64,000 bases of DNA from Christensenellales bacterium (GCA_050945875.1 JBMNTT010000001.1:94832-158831), one strand, 5' to 3'. Positions 5,028 through 40,021 are shown, numbered from the stretch's first letter. Made by a program: numbers and translations. Notes: generated from the sequence alone by a model not told the origin.

Positions 5028-5067
5028 CCGCGCAGCCCCCGCGCGGCGCAGGTTTTCTCCTGAGACA

Positions 5068-5099
5068 GAAAAAAGAGCGGCAGCTAATCGCTGCCGCTC
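5068..5099 (-). terminator. Intrinsic terminator between convergent genes
   Basis: GAGCGGCAGC-taatc-GCTGCCGCTC stem with a T-tract on the minus strand. Confidence 0.75.
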
Positions 5100-5112
5100 A
5101 GATCGTTTTGGC

Positions 5113-6003: not shown

Positions 6004-6386
6004 ACGCTCTCCTCCTCCCCGTCGATGTGGAAGATGCCCACCTGCTCGCAGTGGTCGATCTTGTAGTTGACGGTGTCCAGGCTCTCCTGCAGGCGGCGCA
6101 TCTGGGAGAGAATCTCCTCCCGGTGGGCCAGCAGCATCTGCTTGCGCTGCTGGCAGGTGCTGCTGCCCCGCAGACACAGCTGCATGAACTGCTTGATGTG
6201 GGCGATGGACATACCCGAGTCCTTCAGGCAACAGATCAGCCCCAGCCAGGCCAGGTCGCGCTCGGAAAACTGCCGGATGCCGCTCTGGCTGCGGTGCACC
6301 AACGGCAGCAGACCCTCTTTGTCATAGTAGCGCAGGGTGTAGATCGACAGCCCGGTGCGCTCGGAGACCTGTTTGATGGTGTACAT
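6000..6386 (-). CDS. MerR family transcriptional regulator (AdhR/NmlR-like)
   Basis: MYTIKQVSERTGLSIYTLRYYDKEGLL HTH; Cys in LICCLKDSGM. Confidence 0.92.
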   Translation of the reverse strand: MYTIKQVSERTGLSIYTLRYYDKEGLLPLVHRSQSGIRQFSERDLAWLGLICCLKDSGMSIAHIKQFMQLCLRGSSTCQQRKQMLLAHREEILSQMRRLQESLDTVNYKIDHCEQVGIFHIDGEEESV

Positions 6387-7676: not shown

Positions 7677-7697
7677 TTTGACGCAATAATAGGAGGT

Positions 7698-8804
7698 ATG
7701 ATTACGATGGCATCCAATGTCCTGTTCGCCCCGATGGCTTACTCCCGCTATGAGGCCACCCAAACCCTGCCGGAGAAATTCTCCCGCATGCTCCAGAAAA
7801 CCGGCCTGGCCGAGAAGGTCAAGGGCAAGACCGTCGCCATCAAGATGCACGTGGGCGACGGGGTCACCTACTCCACCATTCCCCCGGTCTTTGTGCGCAA
7901 GCTGGTGGACTTCATCACCGAGAACGGCGGCGACTGCTTCATCACCGACCACTATGTCTACCAGCGCCACCCCGAGCGCCGGGGTTACACCGAGAGCAAC
8001 CTGGGCTGCCCGGTGCTGGATGACTGCAGCTACACCGGCAAGTACTTCTACACCAAGCATGTGGACTATAAGGGCCTCAAACACGTGGACGTGGCCGGCC
8101 TGATCCACGACGCGGACATGATGATCGACTTCTCCCACGTTAAGGGCCACGGCTCCTGCGGGTTCGGCGGGGCGTGCAAGAACATCGCCATGGGCTGCGT
8201 GACCGACCGCACCCGCCATGAGATCCACTCCCTGGAGGGCGGCCTGGTGTGGGACAAGGACAAGTGCATCCACTGCGGGCTGTGCATCCCCGCCTGCAAC
8301 CACCACGCCAACTCCTTCAGCGAACCGGGCAAGGGCGGCGTTTACGAGGTCAACTATCACCACTGCACCATGTGCCAGCACTGCCTGAAGGTCTGCCCCC
8401 GCCAGGCCATCACCCTGGACAGCCATGATTACGCTGATTTCCAGATGGGCATGGCGGTGTGCACCAAGGCCGTGCTGGACACCTTCGCCCCGGGTCAGGT
8501 ATACTATATCAACGTGCTGACCGCCATCACCGCCCTGTGCGACTGCTGGGGCATGACCACCCCGGCCCTGGTGCCCGATATCGGCATCATGGCCAGCGAT
8601 GACATCGTGGCCATCGAGCGGGCCAGCATCGACGCCATCAAGATCGAGGACCTGATTCCTGTGGGCATCCCCCAGGGCATGAAGCTCTCCGGCCACGGCC
8701 ACCTGTTCGAGCAGCTCCACGGCAAGGACCCCTTCATCCAGCTCAAGGCCCTGGAGCAGGTCGGCCTGGGCACCCAGGAGTACGAACTGATCACCGTCAA
8801 ATAA
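7698..8804 (+). CDS. DUF362-type Fe-S protein with ferredoxin insert
   Basis: VAIKMHVG, SHVKGH, GGACKNIAMGC, two CxxCxxCxxxC motifs, CDCW. Confidence 0.85.
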   Translation: MITMASNVLFAPMAYSRYEATQTLPEKFSRMLQKTGLAEKVKGKTVAIKMHVGDGVTYSTIPPVFVRKLVDFITENGGDCFITDHYVYQRHPERRGYTESNLGCPVLDDCSYTGKYFYTKHVDYKGLKHVDVAGLIHDADMMIDFSHVKGHGSCGFGGACKNIAMGCVTDRTRHEIHSLEGGLVWDKDKCIHCGLCIPACNHHANSFSEPGKGGVYEVNYHHCTMCQHCLKVCPRQAITLDSHDYADFQMGMAVCTKAVLDTFAPGQVYYINVLTAITALCDCWGMTTPALVPDIGIMASDDIVAIERASIDAIKIEDLIPVGIPQGMKLSGHGHLFEQLHGKDPFIQLKALEQVGLGTQEYELITVK

Positions 8805-25997: not shown

Positions 25998-27320
25998 CTA
26001 TTTTCCCAACAGGTGGGCGAAGCGATGGGCGGCGCGCTTTTGCGGCTGCGCCGGCTCGGCGCTCGGCGCGTCGGCGGTCGCCTCGGGCAGGGCTTCCTCT
26101 GCCGGGGCCGCGGGCTTTTCACCGCGCTGGATGGTGCCCGAGAGGAACAGGGAGGCCTTGGCGCAGGCCGGCCCGATCATCTCATAGAGCACCGCCGAGG
26201 ACAGGATGATGGTTGAGAGCATCACACCCATCTCCCCGGGCAGCATGCGCGCGCCCAGGGCGGCCAAACCGATGGACACGCCGGCCTGGGGAATCAGCGC
26301 CATGCCCAGATATTTCTTGATGTTGGCGGGGCATTTGCAGATCCACGCGCCCAGGCTGGCGCCCAGATACTTGCCCAGGATGCGCACAAAGAAATACACC
26401 ACCCCGATCACCCCGGCCGTGGCCAGAGCGGGGACGTTCAGCCGCATGCCCGAGAGCACGAAGAACAGCAGCAGCACCGGGGGCGTGAACCCGTTGACCT
26501 GCTTGAAGAGCTTCTTGTTGCCGCTCAGGTTGATATAGACCGTGCCCATGAGCATGCAAGAGAGCAGGGGCGACACCCCAAAGATCGTGCAAAAGCCCGT
26601 CAGGCTCAGGATGATGGCCACCACCAGCACCAGCCGATGGTCATTGCTGCGGTGCTCATTGATGAGCTTGTGCATCACCCACCCGCCCATAACGCCCAAC
26701 ACCAGGGCGACCAGGTTGATCACCAACGGCATCAGGATGACGCTTTGATCCAGGGTGCCGGTGCTCTGCAGCGCCTGGGCCACCGCCGCGCAGACGCTAA
26801 AGGCGATCAGCGCCACCGCGTCGTCCAGGGCCACCACCTGCAGAATCATGTTGACAAAGGGCCCTTTGGCCTTGTACTGCCGGATGGTCATGATGGTCGA
26901 GGCCGGGGCGGTCGCCGAGCCGATCGCGCCGAGCAGCAGCGAGAAGGCCAGCGACAGGTGGAACACATAATACATCGTCAGCGTCACCACCGCCGCGGCC
27001 AGCAGCGCCTCAAACACCGTCACCACCAGCACCTGTTTGCCGCTCTTTTTCAGCTGGGAGAGCTTAAAATATTTGCCCACCCCAAAAGCAATAAAAGCCA
27101 AGGCCACATCCGTGACAAAATCGAGGCTGCCGATCAAACTCTGCGGGATGAGGTTGAGCGCATACGGTCCGATGCACACCCCCGCCAAAATATAACCCGT
27201 CACGTTGGGCAGCTTGAGCGGCTTGGTCAGCCGCGTCATCAGGAAACCCGCCAGCAGCATGACCGCCAAACTGACGATCACCTGGGCCGCCGCGTTTGCC
27301 TGCAAATCCAGTCCCAGCAT
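25998..27320 (-). CDS. Cation:proton antiporter (CPA2/KefB-like)
   Basis: Many TM helices; LPNVTGY, ATAPAST, VALDD, FFVLSG, PQAGV. Confidence 0.88.
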   Translation of the reverse strand: MLGLDLQANAAAQVIVSLAVMLLAGFLMTRLTKPLKLPNVTGYILAGVCIGPYALNLIPQSLIGSLDFVTDVALAFIAFGVGKYFKLSQLKKSGKQVLVVTVFEALLAAAVVTLTMYYVFHLSLAFSLLLGAIGSATAPASTIMTIRQYKAKGPFVNMILQVVALDDAVALIAFSVCAAVAQALQSTGTLDQSVILMPLVINLVALVLGVMGGWVMHKLINEHRSNDHRLVLVVAIILSLTGFCTIFGVSPLLSCMLMGTVYINLSGNKKLFKQVNGFTPPVLLLFFVLSGMRLNVPALATAGVIGVVYFFVRILGKYLGASLGAWICKCPANIKKYLGMALIPQAGVSIGLAALGARMLPGEMGVMLSTIILSSAVLYEMIGPACAKASLFLSGTIQRGEKPAAPAEEALPEATADAPSAEPAQPQKRAAHRFAHLLGK

Positions 27321-27466
27321 TGGTTATCCGCCTTCCTTTCCATATCTGAAGGCGTGCGGCCCGCGCGAAACCCCTGGCCCCAATTTGTCGGGACCATCCG
27401 CGCGGTTGGCCGCACCCATACCCTCTCTGTGGTCTTGATCTTACGCCTCAAAGGTGATAAAATCAA
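27321..27466 (-). promoter_or_regulatory. Promoter plus structured 5' leader (riboswitch-like) of the antiporter gene
   Basis: TTGATT-17-TAAGAT; long three-segment hairpin at 27354-27415 followed by CGCCUUC/GAAGGCG stem over the SD. Confidence 0.5.
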
Positions 27467-27530
27467 ATAATAGTCCGTTAGATACCCATTATTATTTCGA
27501 ATACCGTCGTGAAATGGAGGCCCGAACGCT

Positions 27531-28421
27531 TTGATCGACGCGCGCATCAAAACCCTGATCACCGTGGCCAACTGCGGCAGCTATACCAAAGCCGCCCAGG
27601 CGCTGAACCTGACCCAGCCCGCAGTCAGCCACCACATCCGCTATCTGGAGGAGCGCTACCACATCAAAATCTTCCTGCGGGACAAAAACGAGCTGAAATT
27701 GACCAACGAGGGGGCCATTTTGCTCAAATACGCCCGCCGGGCCGCGGCCATCGCCCACAATGCCCGCCAGGCCATCGAGGATGTCAAGCGGCAGGTGCAC
27801 CACCTGTCCATCGGCATGACCCAGACCGCTGGGGAGAACCTGATGCCCCAGGTGCTGGGCATCTACTGCGATGAGCACCCCCACACCCATATCAATATTT
27901 GTACTGGGACCATTCAAAATCTGCATGAGATGCTCAAGAATTATGAGATCGACGTGGCCGTGGTGGAGGGCAAACTGCCCGACCCGGACTTTACCTCGGT
28001 GCTGCTGGACACCGACTACCTGTGCCTGATCGTCTCGCCGGAGCATCCCTTCGCCAAGCGCAGCAGCGTTTCCCTGTCGGAGCTGCGGGCGGAAAAACTG
28101 ATCCTGCGCTCGGCCAAGGCCGGCACCCGTGCGCTGTTTGACAGTTTCCTGCTCAACAACTCCGCCACCATCAAGAGCCTCAATGTCATCATGGAGATGG
28201 ACAACGTGAGCATGATCAAGGAGCTGGTGAGCATGAACATGGGCATCTCCATCGTGGCCCACAGCGCCTGCAAGGCCGACGAGCAGGCAGGTCGGCTGGC
28301 CGTGGTGCCCATCGCCAACGCCAACATGACCCGGGAGATCAACATGGTCTACTACAACAAGGGCTTCAGCCACACCGAGGTGCTGGAGGACTTTCGCAAA
28401 ATCTACAACCGCCTGCAGTGA
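27531..28421 (+). CDS. LysR family transcriptional regulator
   Basis: GSYTKAAQALNLTQPAVSHHIRYLEE HTH; divergent from the antiporter. Confidence 0.93.
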   Translation: MIDARIKTLITVANCGSYTKAAQALNLTQPAVSHHIRYLEERYHIKIFLRDKNELKLTNEGAILLKYARRAAAIAHNARQAIEDVKRQVHHLSIGMTQTAGENLMPQVLGIYCDEHPHTHINICTGTIQNLHEMLKNYEIDVAVVEGKLPDPDFTSVLLDTDYLCLIVSPEHPFAKRSSVSLSELRAEKLILRSAKAGTRALFDSFLLNNSATIKSLNVIMEMDNVSMIKELVSMNMGISIVAHSACKADEQAGRLAVVPIANANMTREINMVYYNKGFSHTEVLEDFRKIYNRLQ

Positions 28422-28466
28422 CCGGCGCCCCGCTCGTCGCGCGCTCAGCATCCTTTCGTATACCGC

Positions 28467-28501
28467 AAGAGGCAGGCTCCGTCTGGAGCCTGCCTCTTTT
28501 T
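28467..28501. terminator. Terminator between convergent genes
   Basis: AAGAGGCAGGCTCC-gtct-GGAGCCTGCCTCTTTTT. Confidence 0.85.
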
Positions 28502-28514
28502 GCCCGTCTTTCGC

Positions 28515-30797
28515 TCACGTCCGTTGATCGGTCAAGGCCTGCTGGGCCCGCTCCCGAAAGAGAAACACCCCCAGAACCTTGGCAAAGGTGGCCAGGGTGT
28601 CCACCTGCTCCTGGGTCCACAGGTGATTGAGCCGGCACTCGTCAAAGCCCACAAACCCGCGGAAGACGCCATGGTCCCGGATGGCGCAGTGCAACATGGA
28701 CTTGATCCCCTGGCGGATGAGCAGCTCCGCCGAATCGGGCGCCATGGTGGTCACGTCCCGGCAGTAGAAGATGTCCGAGCGTCGAAAGTTTTCGGCATAG
28801 TTGTCGATATCCTCGGTGTACGAGAGGTGCTGCAGCAGGTCGATCTGGGGCGACACATCGGGCCCGCACCACTCGTAGGTGTTGCTGCAATAGTTCGGGT
28901 CCGGCTCATTCTCAAAGACATAGACCCGGCTGACGTCCATGGCTGAGCCGATGGTCGCCATCGCCTGCTGGATCGCGGCGTCCAGGTTGCTCGCCTCGTA
29001 GAGATTTTCAAAGACGTAAGAGATCAGCTGCTCGCTCATGGAGCGCCGAGCAACCGGCCGCTCCTCCGCGGCGGACGCCGGATGCGCCTGGTTCTGCGGC
29101 AGGGCGTGCCCGTAGATCTCATAGCGGTTTTTACCCAAATGCTTGGCTTGGTAGAGCGCCTCGTCCGCATGGCTAAACAGCTGGCGCAGGTCCGTTCCGT
29201 GCATCGGGTAGAGCGCCACCCCAACGCTACAGGACACCCGATAGTCATGCTTCTGATCCTCGAGCACACGGGCAAAGGCCGCGAGCAGCTGGCGGGCCTT
29301 GGTGTGCACCGCCCGCTCATCCGGCAGATCGGACATGTAGACCAAAAACTCGTCGCCCCCCACGCGGCCGACCAGATCCTGGGCGCGGAACAGGCCGCGC
29401 AGGGTGCGCGCTACGTCCGCCAGGAAGGCGTCCCCGAACAGGTGGCCGAGGCTGTCGTTGACCACCTTGAAATCGTCGATATCCACGATCATCAGCGCGT
29501 CAAGCCGCCCTTTCGGGGTTCTGGTCAGGCGCTGATCGATGATCTCCTGCACGGTTCCCTTGTTGTACAGCCCGGTCAGGGCGTCGCGCTGGGCCCGCAG
29601 CTCCAACTCCTGCTGCATGCGCTTCTGCCCGTCGATGTCGATGATCGAGCCCACCACCCGCAAGGGCAGGTGGTCCTGCCCGAACTGGACCGTCGCGCGG
29701 ATCTGACACCAGCGATAGATACCGTCGGCCGCCAGCAGGCGCGTCTGAAAATCCAGCGTCGGCGCGCCGCCCTGGGCCTGCGCGAGCTGCTCCAAAAACG
29801 CCTCCCGGTCCTGCGGATGAATGCGCTCGCTTTGGGCCAGCGCGGCGCTGACCCGCTTCTGGGGCGGCATATAGCCAAAGAAACGATTCCAGTTGGCTGA
29901 CACCTTTAGCGTATCCTGCCTGAGATCATAGTCAAAAATGCTGTCGTTGGATTGGTTTAGGATGATCTGATAGCGCTCCATGCTCAGGCGGAGCTGTTCG
30001 AGGGCCTGCTGGCTCTCGGTGATATCCACCAGGATGCAATAGATCACATCGGTCTGCGCGACCAGTTGGCTCTTCTCCAGCACCCAAAGCTCTCGCCCGT
30101 CCCGGCACAGGACGCGGTACTGATTTTCCATCGGCTTGTTCGTCGCCAAGTCCCGATGCACTTGGGTGAAAACCCGGTCTCGGTCCTCGGGATGGATCAT
30201 CTCCAGGAACGCATTGTGAAAGCGCTCCTCAAGTTCCCGCCGCGAGTAGCCGAAGAGTTTGACAAAGCTATCGCTGACCGCCACGATCGTGTATCGGTCG
30301 TCGTTGCGGCACTGCAGAACGCCTCCGGGGATATTGTCCGAGAGCGCCTTTAGGTCCCGATCCCGTTTGGACAGGGCCTCGGTGCGTTGGGCCAGCAAAT
30401 GATCCAGCCCCGCGCACACATCCCCGGGGTCGACCCAAGAAAAATGGATCATCAAAAAGCGCGGCGCCTCCCCGCAGGGCTCCAGCGTAGCGCCGACATA
30501 CAGGCACACGGACTTGCCGCCCTGCAAGAGCAGGCGCATTCTGCCAACCACCGTCGCGGCGTTCGGGCCGACCGCATGCTCGATCCGCTCGATCTCCAGC
30601 CCCATCGACTCGGGCAGCCGGACGATCTGCTCGCGGAGCGCTTCGCACACGCGCGCGGCGCCCTGATATATCTGCAGGCGGTTCGCATCGATCCAGACCA
30701 CCTGCGGGTGCAGCAGTCGGGCGACCGCCGCCACATCCCGATCCGTTAATAAGCGATGCTGCAAGGACACAAAAGTTTCCACCGCTTCCTGTGCCAT
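28515..30797 (-). CDS. Diguanylate cyclase: NTF2/SnoaL-like, PAS, PAS, GGDEF, GAF
   Basis: IHPEDR and IHPQDR PAS motifs, DALTGLYN, DIDDFK.VND..GH..GD, RAQD I-site, GGDEF, C-terminal GAF (SRVYVFE, GFVGFDEC). Confidence 0.9.
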   Translation of the reverse strand: MAQEAVETFVSLQHRLLTDRDVAAVARLLHPQVVWIDANRLQIYQGAARVCEALREQIVRLPESMGLEIERIEHAVGPNAATVVGRMRLLLQGGKSVCLYVGATLEPCGEAPRFLMIHFSWVDPGDVCAGLDHLLAQRTEALSKRDRDLKALSDNIPGGVLQCRNDDRYTIVAVSDSFVKLFGYSRRELEERFHNAFLEMIHPEDRDRVFTQVHRDLATNKPMENQYRVLCRDGRELWVLEKSQLVAQTDVIYCILVDITESQQALEQLRLSMERYQIILNQSNDSIFDYDLRQDTLKVSANWNRFFGYMPPQKRVSAALAQSERIHPQDREAFLEQLAQAQGGAPTLDFQTRLLAADGIYRWCQIRATVQFGQDHLPLRVVGSIIDIDGQKRMQQELELRAQRDALTGLYNKGTVQEIIDQRLTRTPKGRLDALMIVDIDDFKVVNDSLGHLFGDAFLADVARTLRGLFRAQDLVGRVGGDEFLVYMSDLPDERAVHTKARQLLAAFARVLEDQKHDYRVSCSVGVALYPMHGTDLRQLFSHADEALYQAKHLGKNRYEIYGHALPQNQAHPASAAEERPVARRSMSEQLISYVFENLYEASNLDAAIQQAMATIGSAMDVSRVYVFENEPDPNYCSNTYEWCGPDVSPQIDLLQHLSYTEDIDNYAENFRRSDIFYCRDVTTMAPDSAELLIRQGIKSMLHCAIRDHGVFRGFVGFDECRLNHLWTQEQVDTLATFAKVLGVFLFRERAQQALTDQRT

Positions 30798-30981
30798 GCC
30801 ATCACCTCCTCATCGCCAGGAATCCCTGGCTCATCACCTGATCAATTCCTCAACAGGGCTTTCGCGTTCCCGCCGACGATTCCTCCTCATGCAACGAAAA
30901 GAAGCGATCCTTGCGCACGGCCGCTGGAATTTCAAGCCGCCAAGCGCCGAACGTACCATCATTTTATGCTTGGCGACCCAC

Positions 30982-32046
30982 TCACGGCCGTTTTGACACC
31001 TTTTTGCGCATCAAATCGGGGGATAGGCTGTGGGCGACAGCCTCCTCGGCGCTGATCCGGCCCTGCTCGAAGAGCTGCTGCAGACTGGCATCCATGCCCA
31101 CCATCCCCTCCGCGCCCGAGGAAAAGATAGCCGTGTCGATCTGGTGGACCTTGGCGTCCCGGATCATGTTGCGAATGGCCGTGGTGCACAGCATGATCTC
31201 GAAGGCCGGGACGACCTGCCCATCCAAGGTGGTGACCAGTTGCTGGGAGACCACGGCCTGCAGCACCATGGACAGCTGCATGCGAATCTGTCCCTGCTGA
31301 TTGGGTGGGAAGGCGTCGATGATGCGATCGATGGTGCTGGTGGCGCTCATGGTGTGCAGGGTTGAGATGACCAGGTGCCCGGTCTCAGCGGCCGTCATGG
31401 CGATGCTGATGGTCTCGTGGTCCCGCATCTCGCCCAGCAGGATGACATCGGGCGCCTGGCGCAGGGCGGCGCGCAGGGCCACCGCGTAGCTCTCGGTGTC
31501 TGTGGCGATCTCCCGCTGGCTGATGATGCTGCGGTTGTGGCGGTGGAGATACTCGATGGGGTCCTCCAGGGTAACCACATGGCAGTTGCGAGACTGGTTG
31601 ATGCGATCGATAATACAGTCCAGGGTGGTGGATTTGCCGCTGCCCGCAGGGCCGGTTACCAGCACCAACCCCTTAGGTCGGTTACCCAGCTGTAGCACCA
31701 GGTCGGGTATGCCCAGCTGACACGGATCGGGCAGTTGAAAGGCGATCACCCGCACCACCGCCGCCAGGGAGCCGCGCTGGCGATAGACGCTCACCCGGTA
31801 GCGCGACACGCCTATCAGGGAGAAGGAGAAATCGTCGTCCCCGGCGACCATCATGGGTCCGGGGTCCCGTTCGCTCAGGGCGTAGAGCTGCAGGATCAGC
31901 TCCTGGGTATCGTCGGGCTGCAGCCGTTGCTCCCCCTGGCGCTGGATCTGGTTGTTGATCTTCAGCGCCAGGGGCAAGCCAGCCACGATGAAGATATCCG
32001 AGGCTTGCCGCTGCGCCGCGATTTTGAGCATTTCCTCCGCTGTCAT
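30982..32046 (-). CDS. pilT: PilT/PilU family type IV pilus ATPase
   Basis: ASDI, GPAGSGKST, EDPIE, PDVILLGEMRD, TGHLV.STLH, AIRNMIRD. Confidence 0.92.
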   Translation of the reverse strand: MTAEEMLKIAAQRQASDIFIVAGLPLALKINNQIQRQGEQRLQPDDTQELILQLYALSERDPGPMMVAGDDDFSFSLIGVSRYRVSVYRQRGSLAAVVRVIAFQLPDPCQLGIPDLVLQLGNRPKGLVLVTGPAGSGKSTTLDCIIDRINQSRNCHVVTLEDPIEYLHRHNRSIISQREIATDTESYAVALRAALRQAPDVILLGEMRDHETISIAMTAAETGHLVISTLHTMSATSTIDRIIDAFPPNQQGQIRMQLSMVLQAVVSQQLVTTLDGQVVPAFEIMLCTTAIRNMIRDAKVHQIDTAIFSSGAEGMVGMDASLQQLFEQGRISAEEAVAHSLSPDLMRKKVSKRP

Positions 32047-32065
32047 ATCCCGTGTCCTCCTCGAT

Positions 32066-32527
32066 CTAGTCCAAGAGCTTCAGGGGCGTTTCCTCCTGGG
32101 TAGCCGCCTCGATCAGAACGCTCCGCCAGGATACGCGCTGCCATTGCCCCGTAAAACGCCCCTGCGGATCGGTTGTCAGCGACAGGGCGACCTCAAGTCG
32201 CATCATCTCGCCGATGGGCTCCTGATAGGTCACCCGGACGCCGGAGGCCTGTTGGTCACAGCCATACCCCGCCGCCCGCAGGGCGGCCATCCAGTCCCCG
32301 CCGCCCCGGGCCAGCGCCAGCACCTCGGCCAGGCGTTCCTCGGCGCGCCCATCAGCCTGATAGTAATCGGCCGTGGCCTGCGCCGCGCGGTCGGACAGGC
32401 GCTGATCCGCCCGGGCAGAGACCAGCGAGAGGGCGCCCAGGGTGGTCAGGCTCAGCAGCACAAACACCGCCAGGATCGACACCGCGCCGGTGCCCACCGG
32501 AACCGCAGCCTTCTGTCGGCGCATCAT
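32066..32527 (-). CDS. Pilin-like protein (PilX/GspK-like N-terminus)
   Basis: Basic leader, then G-AVSILAVFVLL hydrophobic helix and YY.AD..A; inside the pilC-pilT operon. Confidence 0.6.
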   Translation of the reverse strand: MMRRQKAAVPVGTGAVSILAVFVLLSLTTLGALSLVSARADQRLSDRAAQATADYYQADGRAEERLAEVLALARGGGDWMAALRAAGYGCDQQASGVRVTYQEPIGEMMRLEVALSLTTDPQGRFTGQWQRVSWRSVLIEAATQEETPLKLLD

Positions 32528-32952
32528 CCCTCACCTCCCGGATCGCTCAGCCGGACGACCGACAGCTGGCAGAGCGGCTCCTCGCCGCGGGTCAGGGCCA
32601 AAGCATAGCGAACGGTGCGCCCCTGAGAATGGGGGGTGACGCGCAGCCGATACACCGCCCGGCCACTCTGGGGCACGGGCTGCCAGTCAGCGCCGTAGTC
32701 CATCGTCCAAGCCGTCCCCGCCCAGGCGGCTCCCTGGTCGGTCAGGGCTTGCTCCCCCTGGCTTTTGATCCGCTCCGCCACCTGCTGGGCGTGGAGCACA
32801 GCCATGGTGGTATCCGCGCTGTGTCGACTGATCAGCTTGGCCTGGGCGAAGAGCTTAACACACACCGTACTGGAGAGGGCAAATAGCAGCAGCACAACCA
32901 TCAGTTCTAGCAGAAACAGGGAGCTCTTGGAGCGGACGGGCGCGCGCCTCAT
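32524..32952 (-). CDS. Pilin-like protein with a degenerate class III signal
   Basis: RSKSS-LFLLELMVVLLLF with Glu at +5; ATGA coupling to neighbours. Confidence 0.7.
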   Translation of the reverse strand: MRRAPVRSKSSLFLLELMVVLLLFALSSTVCVKLFAQAKLISRHSADTTMAVLHAQQVAERIKSQGEQALTDQGAAWAGTAWTMDYGADWQPVPQSGRAVYRLRVTPHSQGRTVRYALALTRGEEPLCQLSVVRLSDPGGEG

Positions 32953-33440
32953 GGCCTCACCTCCACAGCGCCGCAGCGCAGGGTGATGGCGCTGGCGAAC
33001 CAGTTGCCCGACGCGTCCATGGCCTCAACGGCGATGCAGTCCCCCTGAGCGGTCAACTGTAGGTCCGCCAAGGACAAAATGCGCTGCCCATCGCCGGGCG
33101 TGGGCCGTCCCTGGGCGTAGAGCGTCAGCTCATACAGCCCGCCCTGGTACGGATAGATCCAGGTGACATAAGCCTGCCCGTCCACGTGCTGGGTCAAGAT
33201 CAGGGCGTCGGCCTGCCCGACTCGGCCCAGAGCCACATCCCCGGCGGCGTCCTGCTGGCGCACCTTCTGGCTAATGTAGGTCACGCAGCTGCGGGCGCTA
33301 TCGTTCACGCCCATGCTTTCGGAGATGCCCTGATACACATCCGCGCCCAATACCACCACCAAAAGCGCCGTCACCGCAAAGGCCCCGAACAGAGCCAAGA
33401 TGAAGACGAGGTCCGTGATGTGCTGCCGCCAGTTGCGCAT
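32949..33440 (-). CDS. DUF4860-like pilin-like membrane protein
   Basis: H.TDLVFILALFGAFA helix, G..VY, YI.QKVRQ.D, YVTWIY.Y.G.LYE. Confidence 0.7.
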   Translation of the reverse strand: MRNWRQHITDLVFILALFGAFAVTALLVVVLGADVYQGISESMGVNDSARSCVTYISQKVRQQDAAGDVALGRVGQADALILTQHVDGQAYVTWIYPYQGGLYELTLYAQGRPTPGDGQRILSLADLQLTAQGDCIAVEAMDASGNWFASAITLRCGAVEVRP

Positions 33441-33449
33441 GGCTCCCTC

Positions 33450-33782
33450 CTAGCGTGGAAAAACCAAAATCTCCGGCATCAGGTTCGCCCCGTTAAGCCG
33501 GTAATGGTAGACATAGCGGTCCGTGTCGAGCAGAAGGCCATAGCGATCGGCCAAATATTGAAGGTCCGGCGGATAACGTCCCTCCAGGGCATAGCACTGG
33601 GTGACCGTGCGCCGGACGGCCTGCTCAGCCATCTCCAGGCGTGCCGCGTCCGAGCCCACGCGCAGGGAGCGCACCCCGAAGAACACCAGCGCCACCACCA
33701 GGCCCAGCCCAGCCAGGGACGCAAGCAGCCGCCACCCACCCCCGCCCCTTTGGGGCCCTCCCACTCGCCGCATCGCCGTCAT
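33450..33782 (-). CDS. Small pseudopilin-like protein
   Basis: TM helix, amphipathic helix, CYALEGRYPPDLQYL (resembles the GspG G.YP..L..L segment). Confidence 0.65.
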   Translation of the reverse strand: MTAMRRVGGPQRGGGGWRLLASLAGLGLVVALVFFGVRSLRVGSDAARLEMAEQAVRRTVTQCYALEGRYPPDLQYLADRYGLLLDTDRYVYHYRLNGANLMPEILVFPR

Positions 33783-33788
33783 GCTCCT

Positions 33789-34832
33789 TTATCCGATTGC
33801 CGACATGATCCCCATCAGGGGCAGCATGACCGACAGGAGAATCAGCCCGATCACCAGGCACAGCACCGCCACCAGCGTGGGCTCCAGCGCCGCGATCAGC
33901 CCGCTGATTCGCCGATCCACCAGCTCCTCATAGGCCTGAGCGATGCGCTCCATCACGGTATCGAGCGTGCCGGTCTTAAACCCGATGGCGATCATACGAC
34001 CATACAGGCCCGGGAACAAGCCCGTGTCCACCACGGCCTTGGCCAGGCTCTCGCCCGCGTCCACCGCGGCGATCAGGCGGGCCGTCAGCTGCTGACCCCG
34101 GGGCTGATCCATGAGCTCGGCGGTCATCTCCAGGGACTGATCCACGTCCATCCCGCTCTGCAGCATCAGGGACATGGCCGTGGCAAACCGGCTGGCCGCG
34201 ACCGTATCGGTCAGCTTGCGAAACAGCCGGCCGCCCAGCGCGCTGAGCCAGCGCCGCCCCCGCTGGGTGCGGCGCAGCAGGATCAGGGCAAGGGCCAACC
34301 CCGCGATCACCGCCAGGATCACCACCGCGTATCGGCTGAAGGCCTCGCCCACGCCCATGATTCCCAGCGCCAATCCGCTCATCTCGCCGCCGAGCTGATG
34401 AAAAACCTGCTGGAACACCGGCAAAATCTGCACCACGATCACCCCGATGACCCCCAACATCATGGCGATCATGACCAGGGGATAGGTGATGGCGCTGCGG
34501 ATGCTCTGGGAGACGGCCTCGTTGCGCTGATAATAGGCGCACAGGCCCTCGAGCACCGCCTCGAGCTTGCCCGAGGCTTCCCCAATGCGCACCATCTGGA
34601 TCATATAGCTCGGGAAGCGCCCTGTCCGCGCCATGGCGTCCGCCAGGGAGCTGCCCATCTCCATCGGCTCGAGCAGCTGGGACAGCAACTGGGCGTCGCC
34701 GCCCGGCTGCGCGTCCTCCTGGAGGATCATCAACCCCTCCTGCAGGGGCACGCCGCCCTTGACGATGAACAGCAGCTGCTCACAGAAGGCCGCCAGCTCC
34801 CCGCCGCTCATGTCGTGTCGCTCTTTGCCCAT
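33789..34832 (-). CDS. Type II secretion system F / PilC family platform protein
   Basis: FP......IGEASGKL, A.TYP, second repeat G..TGTLD, LEP; three TM segments. Confidence 0.9.
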   Translation of the reverse strand: MGKERHDMSGGELAAFCEQLLFIVKGGVPLQEGLMILQEDAQPGGDAQLLSQLLEPMEMGSSLADAMARTGRFPSYMIQMVRIGEASGKLEAVLEGLCAYYQRNEAVSQSIRSAITYPLVMIAMMLGVIGVIVVQILPVFQQVFHQLGGEMSGLALGIMGVGEAFSRYAVVILAVIAGLALALILLRRTQRGRRWLSALGGRLFRKLTDTVAASRFATAMSLMLQSGMDVDQSLEMTAELMDQPRGQQLTARLIAAVDAGESLAKAVVDTGLFPGLYGRMIAIGFKTGTLDTVMERIAQAYEELVDRRISGLIAALEPTLVAVLCLVIGLILLSVMLPLMGIMSAIG

Positions 34833-34846
34833 GCGCCCGCACCTCC

Positions 34847-35809
34847 CTAGTAGATATAGACCTGATGATAGCCGCTGCCATCGCCCACATAATCCTTGCC
34901 CGCATCGCCCGTCGCCGCAAAGGTGGGGTCCATCATCACCCAGTTGATCCCGTCAAAGTAGATGATGTTATCCACCCAACCCGTGCCCTGGATGTATACG
35001 CTGATCCAAGCGTGGTAAATCTCCCCCACATATCCAACCACCAGGCGGGTGGGGATGCGCTGGCTGCGCAGCATAGCGGTCATCACCGCCGCGTAGTCAA
35101 AGCAGATGCCCTTGCCCGTGGCCAGGGTCTCGTCCACATCGGGCAGGTAACCGCTTGTGACGGACTCCGCCTTCTCATAATCATAGGCGATGCTGCTGAC
35201 AACGTAATCATAGACGCGTCCGACCACGTCCAAGTCGCTGGTCGTCCCCTGGGCTAACTGGGACCCCTGGGCGACGGTCTGGCTGGCCGCGGTAAAGGCC
35301 ACATACTGATTGGGATAGAGAAAGGGAGCGAACGCATCCGCCAAGGTCACCTCCCGCTCCCCGCCCAACACCTGGACATAAGAGGTATCCTGCAGGTTTT
35401 CATATATGGCAAAGTGGTAAACCCCATCGCCTTGGGTGAGCGGAAAGGTGTCCGTCACCCCCGCTCTGAGCGAATAGGTGCAGGGCGTCTGGTCCTGGAA
35501 ACCGATCTGGAGCTTGACCTTGGGGTTGTCCCCGTCGTAGCGCACCTGGATATAGCCCTGCTCGGTATTGGAGGCGTCGATCTGCGCCCGGTCGCCAGAG
35601 AGCACATCCACGCCGCCCCAAACCGGCTCGCGCACCACCGGGGTGTTCTCCCGCGCGGCAGCGGCGGGCGTAGCGGTTTGGACGGTCTGCGGCGCTGCCG
35701 GGGCGGCCTGCGGCGCCGCGCACCCCTGCAACAACAGGCAGCAGGCGACCAGCGACCAGCCCCGCAGGGCACAGCCGCGCCTTCGCGCCCGCGTGCGTTG
35801 CTTGCTCAT
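34847..35809 (-). CDS. Transglutaminase-like lipoprotein
   Basis: Arg-rich leader and LQGC lipobox; GICFDYA, YHAW, MDPT Cys-His-Asp triad. Confidence 0.85.
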   Translation of the reverse strand: MSKQRTRARRRGCALRGWSLVACCLLLQGCAAPQAAPAAPQTVQTATPAAAARENTPVVREPVWGGVDVLSGDRAQIDASNTEQGYIQVRYDGDNPKVKLQIGFQDQTPCTYSLRAGVTDTFPLTQGDGVYHFAIYENLQDTSYVQVLGGEREVTLADAFAPFLYPNQYVAFTAASQTVAQGSQLAQGTTSDLDVVGRVYDYVVSSIAYDYEKAESVTSGYLPDVDETLATGKGICFDYAAVMTAMLRSQRIPTRLVVGYVGEIYHAWISVYIQGTGWVDNIIYFDGINWVMMDPTFAATGDAGKDYVGDGSGYHQVYIY

Positions 35810-35854
35810 CCCTCGACCTGCCTGTTCTGCCCACGGGGGGCATGTGCTCTCCCC

Positions 35855-35883
35855 AGTATAAACAACTTCCACAGCCTTGTAAA
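35855..35883 (-). promoter_or_regulatory. Sigma-A promoter of the pilus-like operon
   Basis: TTTACA-17-TATACT about 45 nt upstream of the ATG at 35809. Confidence 0.6.
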
Positions 35884-36065
35884 GCGGCTCGCCGGCGGCG
35901 GCGCCATGCCCGGGCCATACGCCCAGGTTTTCCGCCAATCTGCCCAATGACGCGGGGTTGCCTGACTAGCCTCCCGCAAATTTCCACAACTAGAAGCGCG
36001 CCTCATAGTATATCGCCCTCCAATCCCCTACAATAAAGGTGAGAATCTCTCAAGAGGTCGATCGT

Positions 36066-36365
36066 ATGAGAATAGACGACGCCAATATTCTAAAGCCCAT
36101 TCTGTCAAACCATTTCAAATCCACTCGAAAACGGCTCAACCTTTCCCAATCAGACATGTCCGAGCGCCTTCACATCTCCGCGCGTTCCTACGCAGATATC
36201 GAGCGGGGCGTTTCCATCTGTTCCGCCCCGGTTTTGCTGCGCTTCATCCTCTACTGCGAGCTGACGCCGCTGGAGTTGTTGGAGCTGCTTGAGAATGTCA
36301 GCGATGGGTTCGATCAGGGAGGCGCGGCGTCATCCGAATCCCCGCCAACCGAGCCGAACGTTTGA
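36066..36365 (+). CDS. XRE family helix-turn-helix regulator
   Basis: RKRLNLSQSDMSERLHISARSYADIERG. Confidence 0.8.
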   Translation: MRIDDANILKPILSNHFKSTRKRLNLSQSDMSERLHISARSYADIERGVSICSAPVLLRFILYCELTPLELLELLENVSDGFDQGGAASSESPPTEPNV

Positions 36366-36388
36366 GGCCAAGCCAAGGGTTCTGTTTG

Positions 36389-36439
36389 GGTGCGCAAAAA
36401 TACCGGCGCTGCCCGTCCGCGCCGATTTTTTTGCGCACC
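36389..36439. repeat. Inverted repeat at the GC-rich/AT-rich junction
   Basis: GGTGCGCAAAAA (36389-36400) / TTTTTGCGCACC (36428-36439) with inner CGGCGC/GCGCCG. Confidence 0.7.
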
Positions 36440-36547
36440 TCGCTGTATAACAAGCTCAAGAAACCCGAAACCTTTACCATCTTTGAGTTTAGAAGTCTGA
36501 TTGACCTAATGGAACTACAAGACGAAGAAATTCTTATGGTAGTATAA
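36437..36547 (+). pseudogene. C-terminal fragment of a Cro/XRE-like HTH protein
   Basis: TSLYNKLKKPETFTIFEFRSLIDLMELQDEEI resembles the recognition helix onward of phage Cro-like proteins; no plausible start or N-terminal half. Confidence 0.45.
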
Positions 36548-36621
36548 AGGACAGGTTTTCCTCTCCTTTTTTATCATAGAATAATCTGCACAAAAAAACC
36601 TCCCGCGAGGGGAGGCTTAAC

Positions 36622-36993
36622 TTATTTTTCTATTCTGCTAAATTCTTTTGAACCACTGTAAATCTTCACACCACCACTGTAAAGCGAATACGTCCAAACA
36701 TATCCTTTGCTATCTTTAGGCGCAAAATTAATAGTATCTTTACTGGTATTAATACTAAAGGTGCCTTCAGAATAGGTTTCTGATATTGTGCTTTTTGTTA
36801 AGCTTATATAGGAACCATCACTATTAAACCGATACATTTCTATCATATTATATTTTCCACCAATTTCATAATACCAGTTATATTTTGTCAAACCGGACAT
36901 AACCTCGTTTTCTTCTGCGGTATCATTACCGCCACATCCCACAATGGTAAGCATTAGTATAAAAGCCAATAATATAGCAATTACTTTTTTCAT
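36622..36993 (-). CDS. AT-rich lipoprotein of unknown function
   Basis: MKKVIAILLAFILMLTIVGC lipobox; own terminator near 36592-36616; foreign codon usage. Confidence 0.8.
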   Translation of the reverse strand: MKKVIAILLAFILMLTIVGCGGNDTAEENEVMSGLTKYNWYYEIGGKYNMIEMYRFNSDGSYISLTKSTISETYSEGTFSINTSKDTINFAPKDSKGYVWTYSLYSGGVKIYSGSKEFSRIEK

Positions 36994-37127
36994 CTCTCAC
37001 ACCCCATTATTTATTATATATTGCTTCTATCATCAATTACAAAACAATCCGGCGTGCCTGTTTCGGGAAGAACTTCCATTCATGCAAAATGCCAGAAATG
37101 CCGATAGATACGGGGTTCTCAGCATAT

Positions 37128-37161
37128 AAAAAGGTTTCAAGAATTTCTTCTTGAAACCTTT
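37128..37161 (-). terminator. Terminator after tmRNA
   Basis: AAAGGTTTCAAGAA-tttc-TTCTTGAAACCTTT. Confidence 0.75.
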
Positions 37162-37164
37162 ATT

Positions 37165-37513
37165 TGGTGGAGGCGAGGGGAGTCGAACCCCTGTCCGAAA
37201 GCAACTCAATCTGGATTCTCCGAGCGCAGCCGGTATTTTACCATTCCCGCCACGGCGCCCCTGCCGGCAGGGTCACCGCTTGAGTAGCTTCATCAAATCC
37301 CACGCATCACAAAGCTTGAATGCGCTGGTTCCCTACGATCATGACGCCGGGGACCGCAGTCGTAGGCTGCTGCGGGCCGACGCTGGCGGCGTTAAGCCGC
37401 CAGAGCTACACGATTATCGTTCGCGTTTATGCTTTTCCCAGTTTTAACGTGGTCCAGGGCCACGGCTCGCTTCACAGACATCGTCTGCCCCCGTCGAAAC
37501 CAAGTACGCCCCC
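37165..37513 (-). ncRNA. ssrA: tmRNA; tag peptide ANDNRVALAA* encoded at 37424-37392
   Basis: 5' GGGGGCG..GGTTTCGAC, 3' GGTTCGACTCCCCTCGCCTCCACCA with G3:U70 pair; directly downstream of smpB. Confidence 0.97.
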
Positions 37514-37525
37514 ATGAAAAGGGGA

Positions 37526-37996
37526 TCATCCCTTCTGCCGCTGCCGGAACGCCCGCTCGATATCGCGCTTGGCATCCCGCTCGGCCATGTCCTGGCGCTT
37601 GTCGTAGAGCTTTTTACCCTTGGCAACGCCGATGGAGACCTTGACCCGCCCATTTTTCAGGTACATGCCCAGGGGAATGAGCGCGTACCCCTCCTGCTGG
37701 GTCAGACCGGCCAGCTTGGCGATCTCCCGCTTGTGCAGCAGGAGCTTGCGCGTGCGCATCGGGTCCCGGTTAAAGATATTGCCCTTCTCATAGGGACTGA
37801 CATGGGCGCCCACCAAAAAGAGCTCCTGACCGGACTGCATGCAGTAGGCGTCGCGCAGATTGACCCGGCCCATGCGGATGGACTTGACCTCGGTGCCCAC
37901 CAGGACGATGCCAGCCTCATAGGTCTCCTCGATAAAATAATCGTGCCGGGCTTTGCGGTTTTCCGCCAGGGAACCGCTGGCCTTTTTTTGGGGCAA
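37526..37996 (-). CDS. smpB: SsrA-binding protein
   Basis: [42 protein letters not shown]; TTG start with GGAGGTG RBS. Confidence 0.97.
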
Positions 37997-38186
37997 CCTG
38001 CTCACCTCCCCTTCGCGCACTGGCTGTATCTGATAGTATACCATATGCCGTGGCGGCGCGCAATCTGTCGCGATGATTCTAGGATGAACCGCTGCGTGGC
38101 GGTCTATGCGGGCGCAAAGCGTCGGCAGGGCTTGATAAATTGACCCGTTCCATCGTATACTGGACTAAAAATTTAAGGAGTGCGGT

Positions 38187-38996
38187 ATGCGAAACGGACT
38201 ACTCAACGCCCTGAAGGGTTTTCTGGTCGGCTCCTCGATGTTGGTGCCCGGGGTGAGCGGCGGGACCATGGCGATTATTCTGGGCATCTACGACCGGATC
38301 ATCGCCGCCATGAGTCATCTGACCCAGAATTTGAAAAAAAACCTGTGGCTGCTGGGCACCTTTGGGCTGGGCGGCCTTGTGGGGATTCTCCTGTTGGCCC
38401 GGCCGCTGTCCTATCTGACCAAGACCTACCCCCTGCCGGTGCTCTACATGTTCATGGGGGCGATCTGCGGGGGCGTTCCCTGCATCTTCCGCAAGGCGGG
38501 GGTGCGCTCCTTCAGCCTGCGGGTGATCGCCTATCCCCTGATCGGCATGGCGATCGTCCTGCTGCTGGACCGGCTGCCCCATTTCAACCTGTTGACCGAC
38601 GGGGGCATCAGCCTGACCACGGCGCTGCTCTTTGCCGCGGCGGGGATCATCATGGCCGTGGCGCTGGTGCTGCCCGGGGTGAGCGGCTCGCAGATGCTGC
38701 TGATGCTGGGCCTGTACGAGAAGACCATGGACGCCATCGCCTCCTTTGACCTGGCCTATATCCTGCCCATGGGCGCGGGCATTCTGCTGGGCCTGATCCT
38801 GACCACCAAGCTGCTGGAGATGCTGCTAAACCGATATCCCCGGGCCAGCTACCTGATCATCCTAGGCTTTATCATCGGCTCGGTGGTGTACGTCTTCCCC
38901 GAGGTGCCCTTCGGCTGGTATCTGCTGATCTGCCCGCTGGCCTTCCTGGCGGGGTTTGGGGGCGTATATTTCCTCTCGCGGTTTGAGCGCGACTGA
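38187..38996 (+). CDS. DUF368 membrane protein (undecaprenyl-phosphate translocase family)
   Basis: Two PGVSG[G/S] re-entrant motifs, each followed by LG[I/L]Y. Confidence 0.9.
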   Translation: MRNGLLNALKGFLVGSSMLVPGVSGGTMAIILGIYDRIIAAMSHLTQNLKKNLWLLGTFGLGGLVGILLLARPLSYLTKTYPLPVLYMFMGAICGGVPCIFRKAGVRSFSLRVIAYPLIGMAIVLLLDRLPHFNLLTDGGISLTTALLFAAAGIIMAVALVLPGVSGSQMLLMLGLYEKTMDAIASFDLAYILPMGAGILLGLILTTKLLEMLLNRYPRASYLIILGFIIGSVVYVFPEVPFGWYLLICPLAFLAGFGGVYFLSRFERD

Positions 38997-39014
38997 GCCC
39001 GGAGGCGCTGCGAT

Positions 39015-39983
39015 ATGACCGTCATCCACACCCATGAGATCACCCTGTATCAGGGGGGTAGCCCCAACCTGGTGCTGCGCCCGCTTTGCGACGCCGACCT
39101 GCCCTTGCTGTGCCGCTGGTGCGCCGATCCCGAGGTGCTCTACTGGACCGAGGGCGGCCCGGATCAGCCCCTGTCCTACGGCCCGGAGACAGTGCGGCGC
39201 ATCTACGGCGGCGTGTCGGCCCAGGCCCACTGCTTTGTGGTGGAGGCGGCAGGCGCGCCCATCGGGGAGTGCTGGCTGCAGCGCATGAACCTGCCCGAGG
39301 TCCGGGCGATGTACCCCGCGGGGACGGATGTGCGCCGCATCGACATGGCCATCGGCGAGAAGACCTGCTGGGGCCGGGGGCTGGGTACCCGCATGATCGG
39401 CATGCTGGTGGATTTCGCCTTCTGTGGGGAGGGTGTGGACGTGCTGCACTGCTTCTGCGAGGACTACAATCTCCGCAGCCGCCGGGTGTGGGAGAAGAAC
39501 GGCTTCTCCCTGGCGCGCGTCGATCCCCTGCCCCAGCCCCAAAAGGGACAAGCCCAGCTGCATTTTGTGCTCACCCGGCAGGCCTATCTGGCCGGGCGGC
39601 GCTTTGTCCCGCCGGCGGATCAGGTGCGCGACCTGACGCTGACGACGCTGACCCCCAGCCAGCTCTACATCAGCGCGGGCAAGCTGGCCCTGGTGGACAG
39701 CTGGTGCTTTGGCGCGGCCCAGATGGACCCGCTGCCCTACATCCAGCTGGATGGCGTCAACCTGCTGACCGACGGGCACACCCGGGCGGTGTGGGCCCAT
39801 CTGCACGGGGAGACCAAAGTGCCCTGCTACCCCGACCCGGACCCCCTGGATCGGGCCGCCTACGCCCAGGATCTGGCCTGGTGTCGGCAGGAGGGCGTGC
39901 TGAGCATCGAGGCGCTGGCCGGGCGCATCGTGTCCCACAAGGACTATGAACGCCTGTGGCGCAAGCGCTGCATGGAAAAGTAA
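39015..39983 (+). CDS. GNAT (RimJ-like) acetyltransferase fused to a C-terminal ParB/Srx-like domain
   Basis: IGEK.CWGRGLG, N.RS.RVWEKNGF; C-terminal PSQLYIS..KL and LTDGHTRA. Confidence 0.75.
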   Translation: MTVIHTHEITLYQGGSPNLVLRPLCDADLPLLCRWCADPEVLYWTEGGPDQPLSYGPETVRRIYGGVSAQAHCFVVEAAGAPIGECWLQRMNLPEVRAMYPAGTDVRRIDMAIGEKTCWGRGLGTRMIGMLVDFAFCGEGVDVLHCFCEDYNLRSRRVWEKNGFSLARVDPLPQPQKGQAQLHFVLTRQAYLAGRRFVPPADQVRDLTLTTLTPSQLYISAGKLALVDSWCFGAAQMDPLPYIQLDGVNLLTDGHTRAVWAHLHGETKVPCYPDPDPLDRAAYAQDLAWCRQEGVLSIEALAGRIVSHKDYERLWRKRCMEK

Positions 39984-40021
39984 ACAGGAGCGGACCGAAA
40001 ACGGTCCGCTCCTGTTATTTT
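39982..40021. terminator. Bidirectional terminator
   Basis: AACAGGAGCGGACCG-aaaa-CGGTCCGCTCCTGTT. Confidence 0.85.

Follow-up and report, generated by a model that had tools for sequence, protein, structure and literature searches.

Gene Organization of the Cassette

A stretch of 64,000 nucleotides from a Christensenellales bacterium (GCA_050945875.1, JBMNTT010000001.1:94832-158831), hereafter the window, carries on its minus strand a run of seven open reading frames (ORFs) that follow one another head to tail from 35809 to 30982, all frames being intact (Table 1). In the direction of transcription, these ORFs encode a transglutaminase-like lipoprotein, a short PilC/GspF-type platform protein, four small proteins designated here P3 to P6, and a PilT-family ATPase, and they are together referred to as the cassette. 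The intergenic distances along the cassette are 14, 6, 9, -4, -4, and 19 bp, with both overlaps reading ATGA, and all seven genes start with ATG and have a GGAGG-like ribosome-binding site upstream. A promoter-like site precedes the first gene; because the scan, which scored consensus matches only, returned 4 such sites in the 6 kb region vs. 1.4 expected in shuffles, this site is weak evidence for a promoter. Searches of the window with family profiles retrieved no second T2SSE ATPase, A24 peptidase, PilM, or secretin.

Table 1. Positions of the cassette genes, of associated features in the window, and of two related loci with a displaced PilT gene.
Feature	Position	Strand	Basis or remark
Window
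Promoter-like site, TTTACA-17-TATACT	35855..35883	-	About 45 bp upstream of first gene; consensus scan
Transglutaminase-like lipoprotein, 320 aa	34847..35809	-	PF01841
Short PilC/GspF-type platform, 347 aa	33789..34832	-	PF00482, two T2SSF repeats
P3, 110 aa, predicted small pilin-fold protein	33450..33782	-	AlphaFold2 (AF2) model and structural search
P4, 163 aa, DUF4860	32949..33440	-	PF16152; GspJ/XcpW-like fold in AF2 model
P5, 142 aa, pilin-like N-terminus	32524..32952	-	Family profile vs. PDB pilins
P6, 153 aa, N-terminal hydrophobic helix	32066..32527	-	Sequence; colinear in loci
PilT-family hexameric ATPase, 354 aa	30982..32046	-	TIGR01420, motifs, tree
Candidate associated regulator, SnoaL-PAS-PAS-GGDEF-GAF, 760 aa	28515..30797	-	Pfam; recurrence near cassettes
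Other genomes
Displaced-PilT locus L147 (G145)	4382-5452		
Displaced-PilT locus L148 (G424)	4394-5455		

The Platform Protein and the PilT-Family ATPase

The platform protein matched PF00482 (T2SSF) at 1e-45 in two stretches, and it corresponds to the GspF profile from about position 57 onward. It reached no NCBIfam equivalog cut-off, scoring 214.6 vs. 424 bits for GspF and 128.8 vs. 240 bits for ComGB. The ATPase was assigned to the PilT/PilU family TIGR01420 at 409.4 bits vs. the cut-off of 319.1, covering positions 3-341 of 343, while it stayed below the cut-offs of GspE (132.5 vs. 630 bits) and ComGA (140.2 vs. 300 bits) and gave at most 39 bits with the TadA-type models. Among PDB chains, its match to Aquifex PilT (1e-96) was far stronger than those to PilB/GspE (2e-26 at best). 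The Walker A (residue 132), Walker B (residue 200), and His box (residue 222) motifs and AIRNMIR at residue 290, the C-terminal helix motif named AIRNxIR in the PilT literature, are equally conserved in 56 cassette ATPases and 23 canonical PilTs.

Pilin-Like Features of the Four Small Proteins

P4 matched PF16152 (DUF4860) at 5.7e-23, with 81.2 bits vs. the gathering cut-off of 25. Its AF2 model, based on 88 homologues, reached a predicted local distance difference test (pLDDT) value of 93.8 and consists of a single helix (residues 2-62) followed by eight strands. The models of P4 and P3 were compared with 48,161 chains in an exhaustive VIA search. For P4, TTHA1219 ranked first (Z 9.2, root mean square deviation 3.2, 113 residues aligned), followed by GspJ (Z 8.1), XcpW (8.1), the Streptococcus sanguinis PilB pilin (7.8), and EpsJ (7.7), beyond which came unrelated coiled coils at Z 5.9 or lower. 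Because the top five chains are all minor pilins or pseudopilins, DUF4860 is, as modeled, a GspJ/XcpW-like minor-pilin fold. At its N-terminus, P4 carries Asp at the pilin +5 place and Arg at -1, and hhalign aligned the N-termini of P4 and P5 with a probability of 64%, placing the conserved Asp of P4 on the Glu of P5.

P3, comparable in size to GspG and PilA, belongs to no Pfam or NCBIfam family. Its AF2 model (106 homologues, pLDDT 91.7) comprises a helix (residues 15-67), a short helix, and two strands, and the top 10 chains in the VIA search were all pilins, including PilA4 (Z 7.6), EpsG (6.0), and PulG (5.7); residues 12-110 of the model superpose on residues 1-95 of mature PilA4. The protein carries a conserved QCYAxEGxYP...YG motif with eight columns invariant in 106 sequences, and, having neither Gly-1 nor Glu+5, it shows no class III motif at all. 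Foldseek searches against the PDB gave weak matches (P4 with EpsJ, probability 0.99, E 0.056; P3 with pilins, E about 1), and the VIA results were clearer.

The N-terminus of P5 reads ...KSS↓LFLLE... (the arrow separating positions -1 and +1), with Ser at -1 and with Glu+5 retained, the latter invariant in a 24-row alignment. The P5 family profile matched the N-terminal helices of type IV pilins in the PDB at values between 2.7e-5 and 4e-3, residue 1 of the mature pilins falling on profile position 11, while the profiles of P3, P4, and P6 found nothing meaningful among the PDB sequences, and hhalign yielded no usable match of P3 to P5. P6, considered as a candidate capping minor pilin of the GspK/PilX type, has a hydrophobic N-terminal helix after G-x-G, without an acidic +5 residue; in the protein Atlas it fell into unnamed Bacillota clusters only, the nearest named family, DUF2509 at 0.83, being a lead only. 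In the scan of the genome with the N_methyl model, no cassette subunit reached the model, P5 included.

The Transglutaminase-Like Lipoprotein

The first gene product matched PF01841 (Transglut_core) at 6e-22, with 78.4 bits vs. the cut-off of 23. Its lipobox, LLQGC, ends at Cys30, and Cys236, His266, and Asp294 are invariant among 63 aligned homologues, so that the enzyme is, as judged from its residues, catalytically intact. The nearest solved structure is 3isr, a putative cysteine protease, at 3.7e-9. Complex prediction of residues 31-320 with P4, P5, and P6 gave a score of 0.06, with the mark at 0.32, and bears neither way on an association of the enzyme with these subunits.

A preliminary description, made from the sequence of the window, had listed seven tightly packed or ATGA-coupled genes behind one promoter, encoding a Cys-His-Asp lipoprotein, a GspF/PilC platform, four small pilin-like proteins with N-terminal hydrophobic helices, and a PilT-type ATPase with the AIRNxIR signature, and it had noticed no PilB, prepilin peptidase, PilM, or secretin in the window. 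The coordinates, gaps, and ribosome-binding sites, the PF01841, PF00482, and TIGR01420 assignments, and the profile searches agree with this list, the evidence for the promoter being weak. The pilin-like character of the small proteins was seen as AF2 folds for P3 and P4, both modeled as pilin folds, as a pilin N-terminus for P5, and as a helix for P6.

Conservation and Subtypes of the Cassette

To collect related loci, a pattern of the P3 motif was searched in a collection with one genome per species, and the hits were confirmed by tblastn. P3 relatives were found in at least 598 loci/species genomes, and the best 80 of these at least 598 include the cultured Christensenella hongkongensis (HKU16), Neobittarella massiliensis, Youxingia wuxianensis (NSJ-64), Sedimentibacter acidaminivorans (DSM 24004), Anoxynatronum (A. 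sibiricum), and Lachnotalea, together with many Oscillospiraceae and Lachnospiraceae genomes. The same gene string was present in all 11 other DUF4860-bearing relatives from the same order, and it was syntenic in 19 of 20 loci sampled at the class level. In 94 of 107 loci (two duplicates removed), the core PilC-P3-P4-P5-P6 was colinear according to an automated filter; seven of the 13 non-complete loci are cut by contig ends, and six are without one small gene, owing to the overlap filter or to divergence. Because the 107 loci were picked by likeness to the window P3, this set over-represents the subtype of the window. In the 76 loci whose flanks reach at least 1.5 kb on either side, PilT is adjacent to the core in 61 and the transglutaminase gene in 70; 55 loci have both neighbours, and no locus has neither. 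Two genomes of one genus, G145 and G424, have no adjacent PilT, and their PilT lies about 40 kb away on the same contig. Homologues of the PilB, PilD, PilM, PilN, and PilO of the source genome were absent within about 8 kb in the 107 loci. These results indicated that the cassette genes are inherited together across Clostridia, including in genomes without any other type IV filament gene (see below). The synteny anticipated in the preliminary description was thus found, while its seven-gene unit holds as a five-gene core, the full set of seven being one subtype.

Two subtypes were distinguished by their N-terminal signals. In one subtype, P5 carries G↓F(T/S)LxE and P4 carries G↓xxxxE, and the leading transglutaminase is mostly missing; in the window subtype, P5 carries x↓LFL(L/M/I)E and P4 carries x↓xHxxD, and the transglutaminase gene is the first in the operon. 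An automated pattern found the P5 motif in 95 of 105 loci, a few rows being spurious. Of these 95, 40 have Gly at -1, 27 have Ser, 12 Lys, 4 each Arg and Glu, 3 Asn, 2 Ala, and 3 another residue. The ratio of non-Gly to Gly at -1 was 49:25 in loci with an adjacent transglutaminase and 6:15 in those without. From what is established about class III signals, Lys, Arg, or Ser at -1 makes a poor prepilin-peptidase site. Because of these poor -1 residues and of the PilD-free hosts described below, we infer that the window subtype works unprocessed.

Occurrence With and Without a Canonical Pilus Locus

The source assembly (98% complete, 75 contigs) was then searched as a whole. Its contig C36 carries a canonical pilus locus with a pilin, PilT (508 aa), PilB (564 aa), PilD, PilO, PilN, PilM, PilC (420 aa), and minor pilins; the C36 pilin carries G↓FTLIE, the C36 PilB carries an MshEN domain, and PilM occurs on C36 only. 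No secretin was found in the source genome, while ComEC is present. The window is thus free of pilB and pilD, as the preliminary description had stated, whereas the genome is not. Two peculiarities of C36 were also observed. Its PilT (6837-8363, minus strand) has a C-terminal extension of about 150 residues with a hydrophobic stretch, the PilTs of relatives being 350-390 aa; and a 2147-aa frame that follows shortly after the pilin gene starts with a class III signal motif (38 bits; near 6189-6266, minus strand) and may be a giant modular pilin or adhesin.

Among 61 genomes from the same order, DUF4860 was found in 12, the source genome counted. Seven of these 12 carriers have both a PilB-type MshEN domain and an A24 peptidase, and five have neither. 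Two of the five are incomplete (51 and 88%), while three are of good quality, namely G040 (98% complete, 3 contigs), G042 (92%), and G056 (98%). In each of these three, the cassette ATPase is the sole T2SSE match over the cut-off and the cassette platform is the sole T2SSF protein, and searches of the whole genomes detected no PilB, no A24 peptidase, and no N_methyl (class III) motif anywhere. At the class level, DUF4860 was found in 38 of 400 scored genomes, again with the source genome counted, and 35 carriers were searched further: a PilB-type ATPase over 400 bits was present in 22 and absent from 13, though the latter have Tad-type ATPases, and some A24 peptidase was present in 33. Because it is intact in three high-quality genomes without other filament genes, the cassette is independent of a canonical pilus locus. 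Its occurrence in genomes lacking PilB, foreseen in the preliminary description, was thereby observed, and an obligatory company of pilB and pilD was not.

ComEC was present in 56 of the 61 same-order genomes irrespective of the cassette, so its co-occurrence with the cassette is uninformative, and it was not found in the carrier G056 (98% complete). For comparison, the PilB-type MshEN domain occurs in 21 and the cassette in 12 of the 61, and many of these genomes have ComEC without a PilB-type motor or a cassette, no search for ComGA having been made over all 61.

Lineage of the Cassette ATPases and Platforms

A quick maximum-likelihood tree of 88 ATPases, with nine PilB rows as outgroup, placed all cassette ATPases inside the PilT clade (support 100 vs. 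PilB, starred). Among them, 48 of 54 cassette ATPases and the two displaced PilTs form one group (93, not starred), in which the displaced PilTs of G145 and G424 are sister to the main cassette clade of 48, and the window ATPase falls within an all-cassette set of 38 rows (99, starred). The other six belong to loci in which PilT comes first (PilT-PilC-P3...P6) and make up a second group (96, starred) that is sister (99, starred) to the PilT of genome G080. In the platform tree, a single branch (96, starred) parts 68 cassette platforms from 16 canonical PilCs, and the platforms of the PilT-first loci are nearest to that of G080. The proposal of a clade of its own, made in the preliminary description, thus held for the platforms, while the ATPases fall into two groups nested in the PilT clade.

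The G080 locus (L047, 4650-10142) has the order PilB-PilT-PilC (354 aa)-pilin-P3 homologue-P4 homologue. All three of its small proteins carry canonical G↓F..E signals, the P3 homologue having G↓FTLIE together with QCYALEGRYPP, and the P4 homologue having G↓FSVVE. From its gene content and signals, this locus looks intermediate between an ordinary pilus operon and the cassette. Together with the trees, it suggests that the cassette descended from an ordinary clostridial pilus operon that lost PilB and its major pilin, the succession of these events being tentatively read from unrooted or outgroup-rooted quick trees.

Relation to Known Type IV Filament Systems

With a GspE/PilT-superfamily ATPase, a GspF/PilC platform, and pilin-fold subunits present together, the cassette is a variant within the type IV filament superfamily and not a new kind of system. 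It resembles the type IVa pili of monoderm Clostridia in its PilT with all motifs, its PilC of two T2SSF repeats, and its subunits with long N-terminal helices, and descent from them is visible in G080 and in both trees. It differs from them, however, in having no PilB, PilMNO, or PilD of its own and no N_methyl subunit, in the loss of Gly-1 from P4 and P5, in the added transglutaminase-like lipoprotein, and in standing alone in some genomes. From the pseudopilus of the type II secretion system (T2SS), it shares a GspJ/XcpW-like subunit (P4) and a GspG/PulG-like one (P3), one member without Glu+5, a GspF-type platform, and the expectation of no long fibre; yet its motor is of the PilT clade, its GspE and GspF scores are far below the cut-offs, secretin, GspL, and GspM are missing, the host is monoderm, and the subunits are probably uncleaved. 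Like the ComG system of Bacillota, it is a compact monoderm operon with a single short ATPase, a single platform, and several small pilins, and its PilT-first variant even shares the comG gene order, whereas its ATPase is of the retraction clade, its pilins number four vs. five, the ComGA and ComGB cut-offs are not reached, and neither a dependence on ComC (in PilD-free hosts) nor a tie to ComEC is seen. Tad/Flp pili are similar in that one ATPase appears to serve the whole machine, CpaF being reported as their single bidirectional motor (PMC11300603), but they use another ATPase lineage, TadB/TadC, Flp pilins, and TadV.

The literature searched holds no description of the cassette, "DUF4860" being found in 0 papers, although the "generic" systems in the supplementary data of Denise et al. 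(2019) might include such loci. The cassette is widespread in gut-type Clostridia and apparently undescribed. What is new here are the counts of PilB- and PilD-free genomes, the signal subtypes tied to the transglutaminase, the G080 intermediate, the folds of DUF4860 and P3, and the displaced PilT. DUF4860 thereby gains a fold and a gene context.

Interpretation and Alternative Explanations

With the parts list, autonomy, and descent of the cassette established as above, we favor, at about even odds, the reading that it is a self-contained clostridial derivative of the type IV pilus that does without PilB, PilMNO, and a canonical major pilin and, in the window subtype, also without PilD. The non-canonical filament subtype proposed in the preliminary description is supported by the synteny, the split of the platforms, the autonomy, and the pilin folds, while a short, membrane-embedded stub driven by PilT and a physical partnership with the enzyme, its other parts, are what we infer beyond these. 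In the mechanism envisaged, the four small proteins would remain unprocessed, their short basic leaders anchoring them in the membrane, and would stack on PilC like the tip complex of minor pilins or pseudopilins: P6 would cap the stack, P4 and P5 would come next, and P3 might form a base of repeated subunits. As the sole motor, the PilT hexamer would turn PilC and so raise and lower, or recycle, a short stub within the cell wall, and the lipoprotein may cut or form amide or isopeptide bonds at this site, be it in the wall or in proteins of the surface.

A narrower proposal, which we regard as possible but doubtful, is that a PilT-clade ATPase is the only motor and both assembles and retracts a pseudopilus whose pilin-like subunits never undergo cleavage by a prepilin peptidase. 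Textbooks give PilT as the motor of retraction, and the type IV filament machines characterised so far are all, to our knowledge, described as requiring both an extension ATPase and a prepilin peptidase; if the proposal is true, neither the PilB-type extension motor nor class III processing is universal in the superfamily. PilT is reported to promote extension of the MSHA pilus (PMC9815625), and CpaF to drive Tad pili as a single bidirectional motor (PMC11300603), so flexibility of such motors exists. Denise et al. (2019; PMC6668835) describe PilB as the assembly ATPase of all families, and the part of that study consulted here mentions no PilT-only system.

Several observations weigh against the favored reading or parts of it. 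A search of sequencing runs listed no RNA run. Only two alignment columns discriminate the cassette PilT from canonical retraction PilTs and all motifs are retained, AIRNxIR included, so the motor, judged by its sequence, shows no hint of a new working direction. The trees are quick ones without a mixture model, and they place the cassette ATPases in two positions, not one. The P3 Z-scores (at most 7.6) are moderate and within the range that VIA calls common, so that the assignment of P3 as a pilin rests on the consistency of its match list, and P6 has no Pfam or NCBIfam family, no profile match in the PDB, and no usable hhalign match to P5. The transglutaminase is absent or positioned elsewhere in some loci and is therefore not core. 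Because about 40% of the P5 homologues (40 of 95) retain Gly at -1, processing of P5 may persist in many hosts, and in the source genome itself the C36 PilB and PilD may be shared with the cassette.

Such sharing leads to the explanation that the cassette is an accessory module of a canonical pilus, a second platform, retraction motor, and set of minor pilins working with the C36 PilB and PilD. The full pilB-pilT-pilC-pilD-pilMNO locus on C36, the presence of PilB and PilD in 7 of 12 same-order carriers and of a PilB-type ATPase in 22 of 35 class-level ones, and the G080 locus, where homologues of P3 and P4 serve beside PilB, would all fit it. We nevertheless consider it unlikely, since the cassettes of G040, G042, and G056 are intact without PilB, PilD, a second PilC, or a class III motif, the C36 locus has its own PilT, PilC, and minor pilins, Arg-1 of P4 and Ser-1 of P5 in the window make poor PilD substrates, and the cassette is never beside pilB or pilD in 107 loci. 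Somewhat less likely again is a Gram-positive counterpart of the T2SS, in which the stub would work as a piston and drive folded cargo, the lipoprotein or others, through the thick wall. The GspG-like P3, the GspJ-like P4, and the leading position of the lipoprotein gene speak for it, as does Clostridium perfringens, in which secretion of a matrix protein is reported to require a second pilus gene set (bioRxiv 10.1101/2024.11.04.621531); but that system has PilB-type motors, no Peptidase_M73/TasA family gene is found in the source genome, known T2SSs use GspE, whose model the cassette ATPase scores far below, and the transglutaminase is not present at every locus.

A DNA-uptake pseudopilus replacing ComG would account for the gene order of the PilT-first variant (ATPase, platform, small pilins), for the ComG-sized pilins, and for the ComEC in the source genome. 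It appears improbable, as the ATPase is of the PilT clade, ComGA and ComGB scores are about half of their cut-offs, and ComEC is found in most same-order genomes regardless of the cassette and not in G056. That the cassette is a decaying, functionless remnant of a pilus is scarcely credible: eroded class III motifs and a split PilT in one genome would point to decay, whereas none of the seven frames is broken and all have a ribosome-binding site, the catalytic residues and motifs do not vary among 63-106 homologues, and the gene order is common to many families of Clostridia. The split PilT (G009, L018, 5614-6671) consists of two overlapping ORFs of 146 and 269 aa in a single-contig genome and is a frameshift or a sequencing error.

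Because a self-contained cassette persists where no PilB, PilD, or canonical pilin is found, it offers a natural test of what PilT and PilC can achieve by themselves and of whether proteins of pilin type can work unprocessed, and because it is common in gut and rumen Clostridia, cultured strains included, it can be tested directly.

Flanking Genes

The gene for the 760-aa SnoaL-PAS-PAS-GGDEF-GAF protein, whose GGDEF motif is intact, follows PilT on the same strand after 184 bp. Of 104 loci, 41 have a GGDEF-like ORF no farther than 6 kb away, and in the nearest relatives of the window this ORF immediately follows PilT; since such genes occur often in Clostridia and related genomes do not count as independent cases, which speaks against a functional link, this recurrence is no more than a suggestive lead. 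The flanking GGDEF-type gene might tie the expression or activity of the cassette to cyclic di-GMP signalling. An Rfam scan of 27000-40000 found only a transfer-messenger RNA (tmRNA), and no cyclic di-GMP riboswitch. A regulator of about 410 aa with a SARP/BTAD winged helix and a weak GGDEF match (Pfam, 4.3e-4) occurs in 25 of 110 loci (e.g., L120, 2862-4100), and an ECF sigma factor stands beside the cassette in 10 of 110.

Upstream of the cassette, the tmRNA gene (176.5 bits) and smpB adjoin each other at 37165-37513 and 37526-38044, both on the minus strand. The G+C content of 36001-38000 is 49.8% vs. about 64% in the surroundings, and this stretch may have been inserted at the tmRNA; it contains an XRE-type helix-turn-helix gene (36039-36365) and, at 36622-36993, a small ORF that resembles a lipoprotein and belongs to no family.

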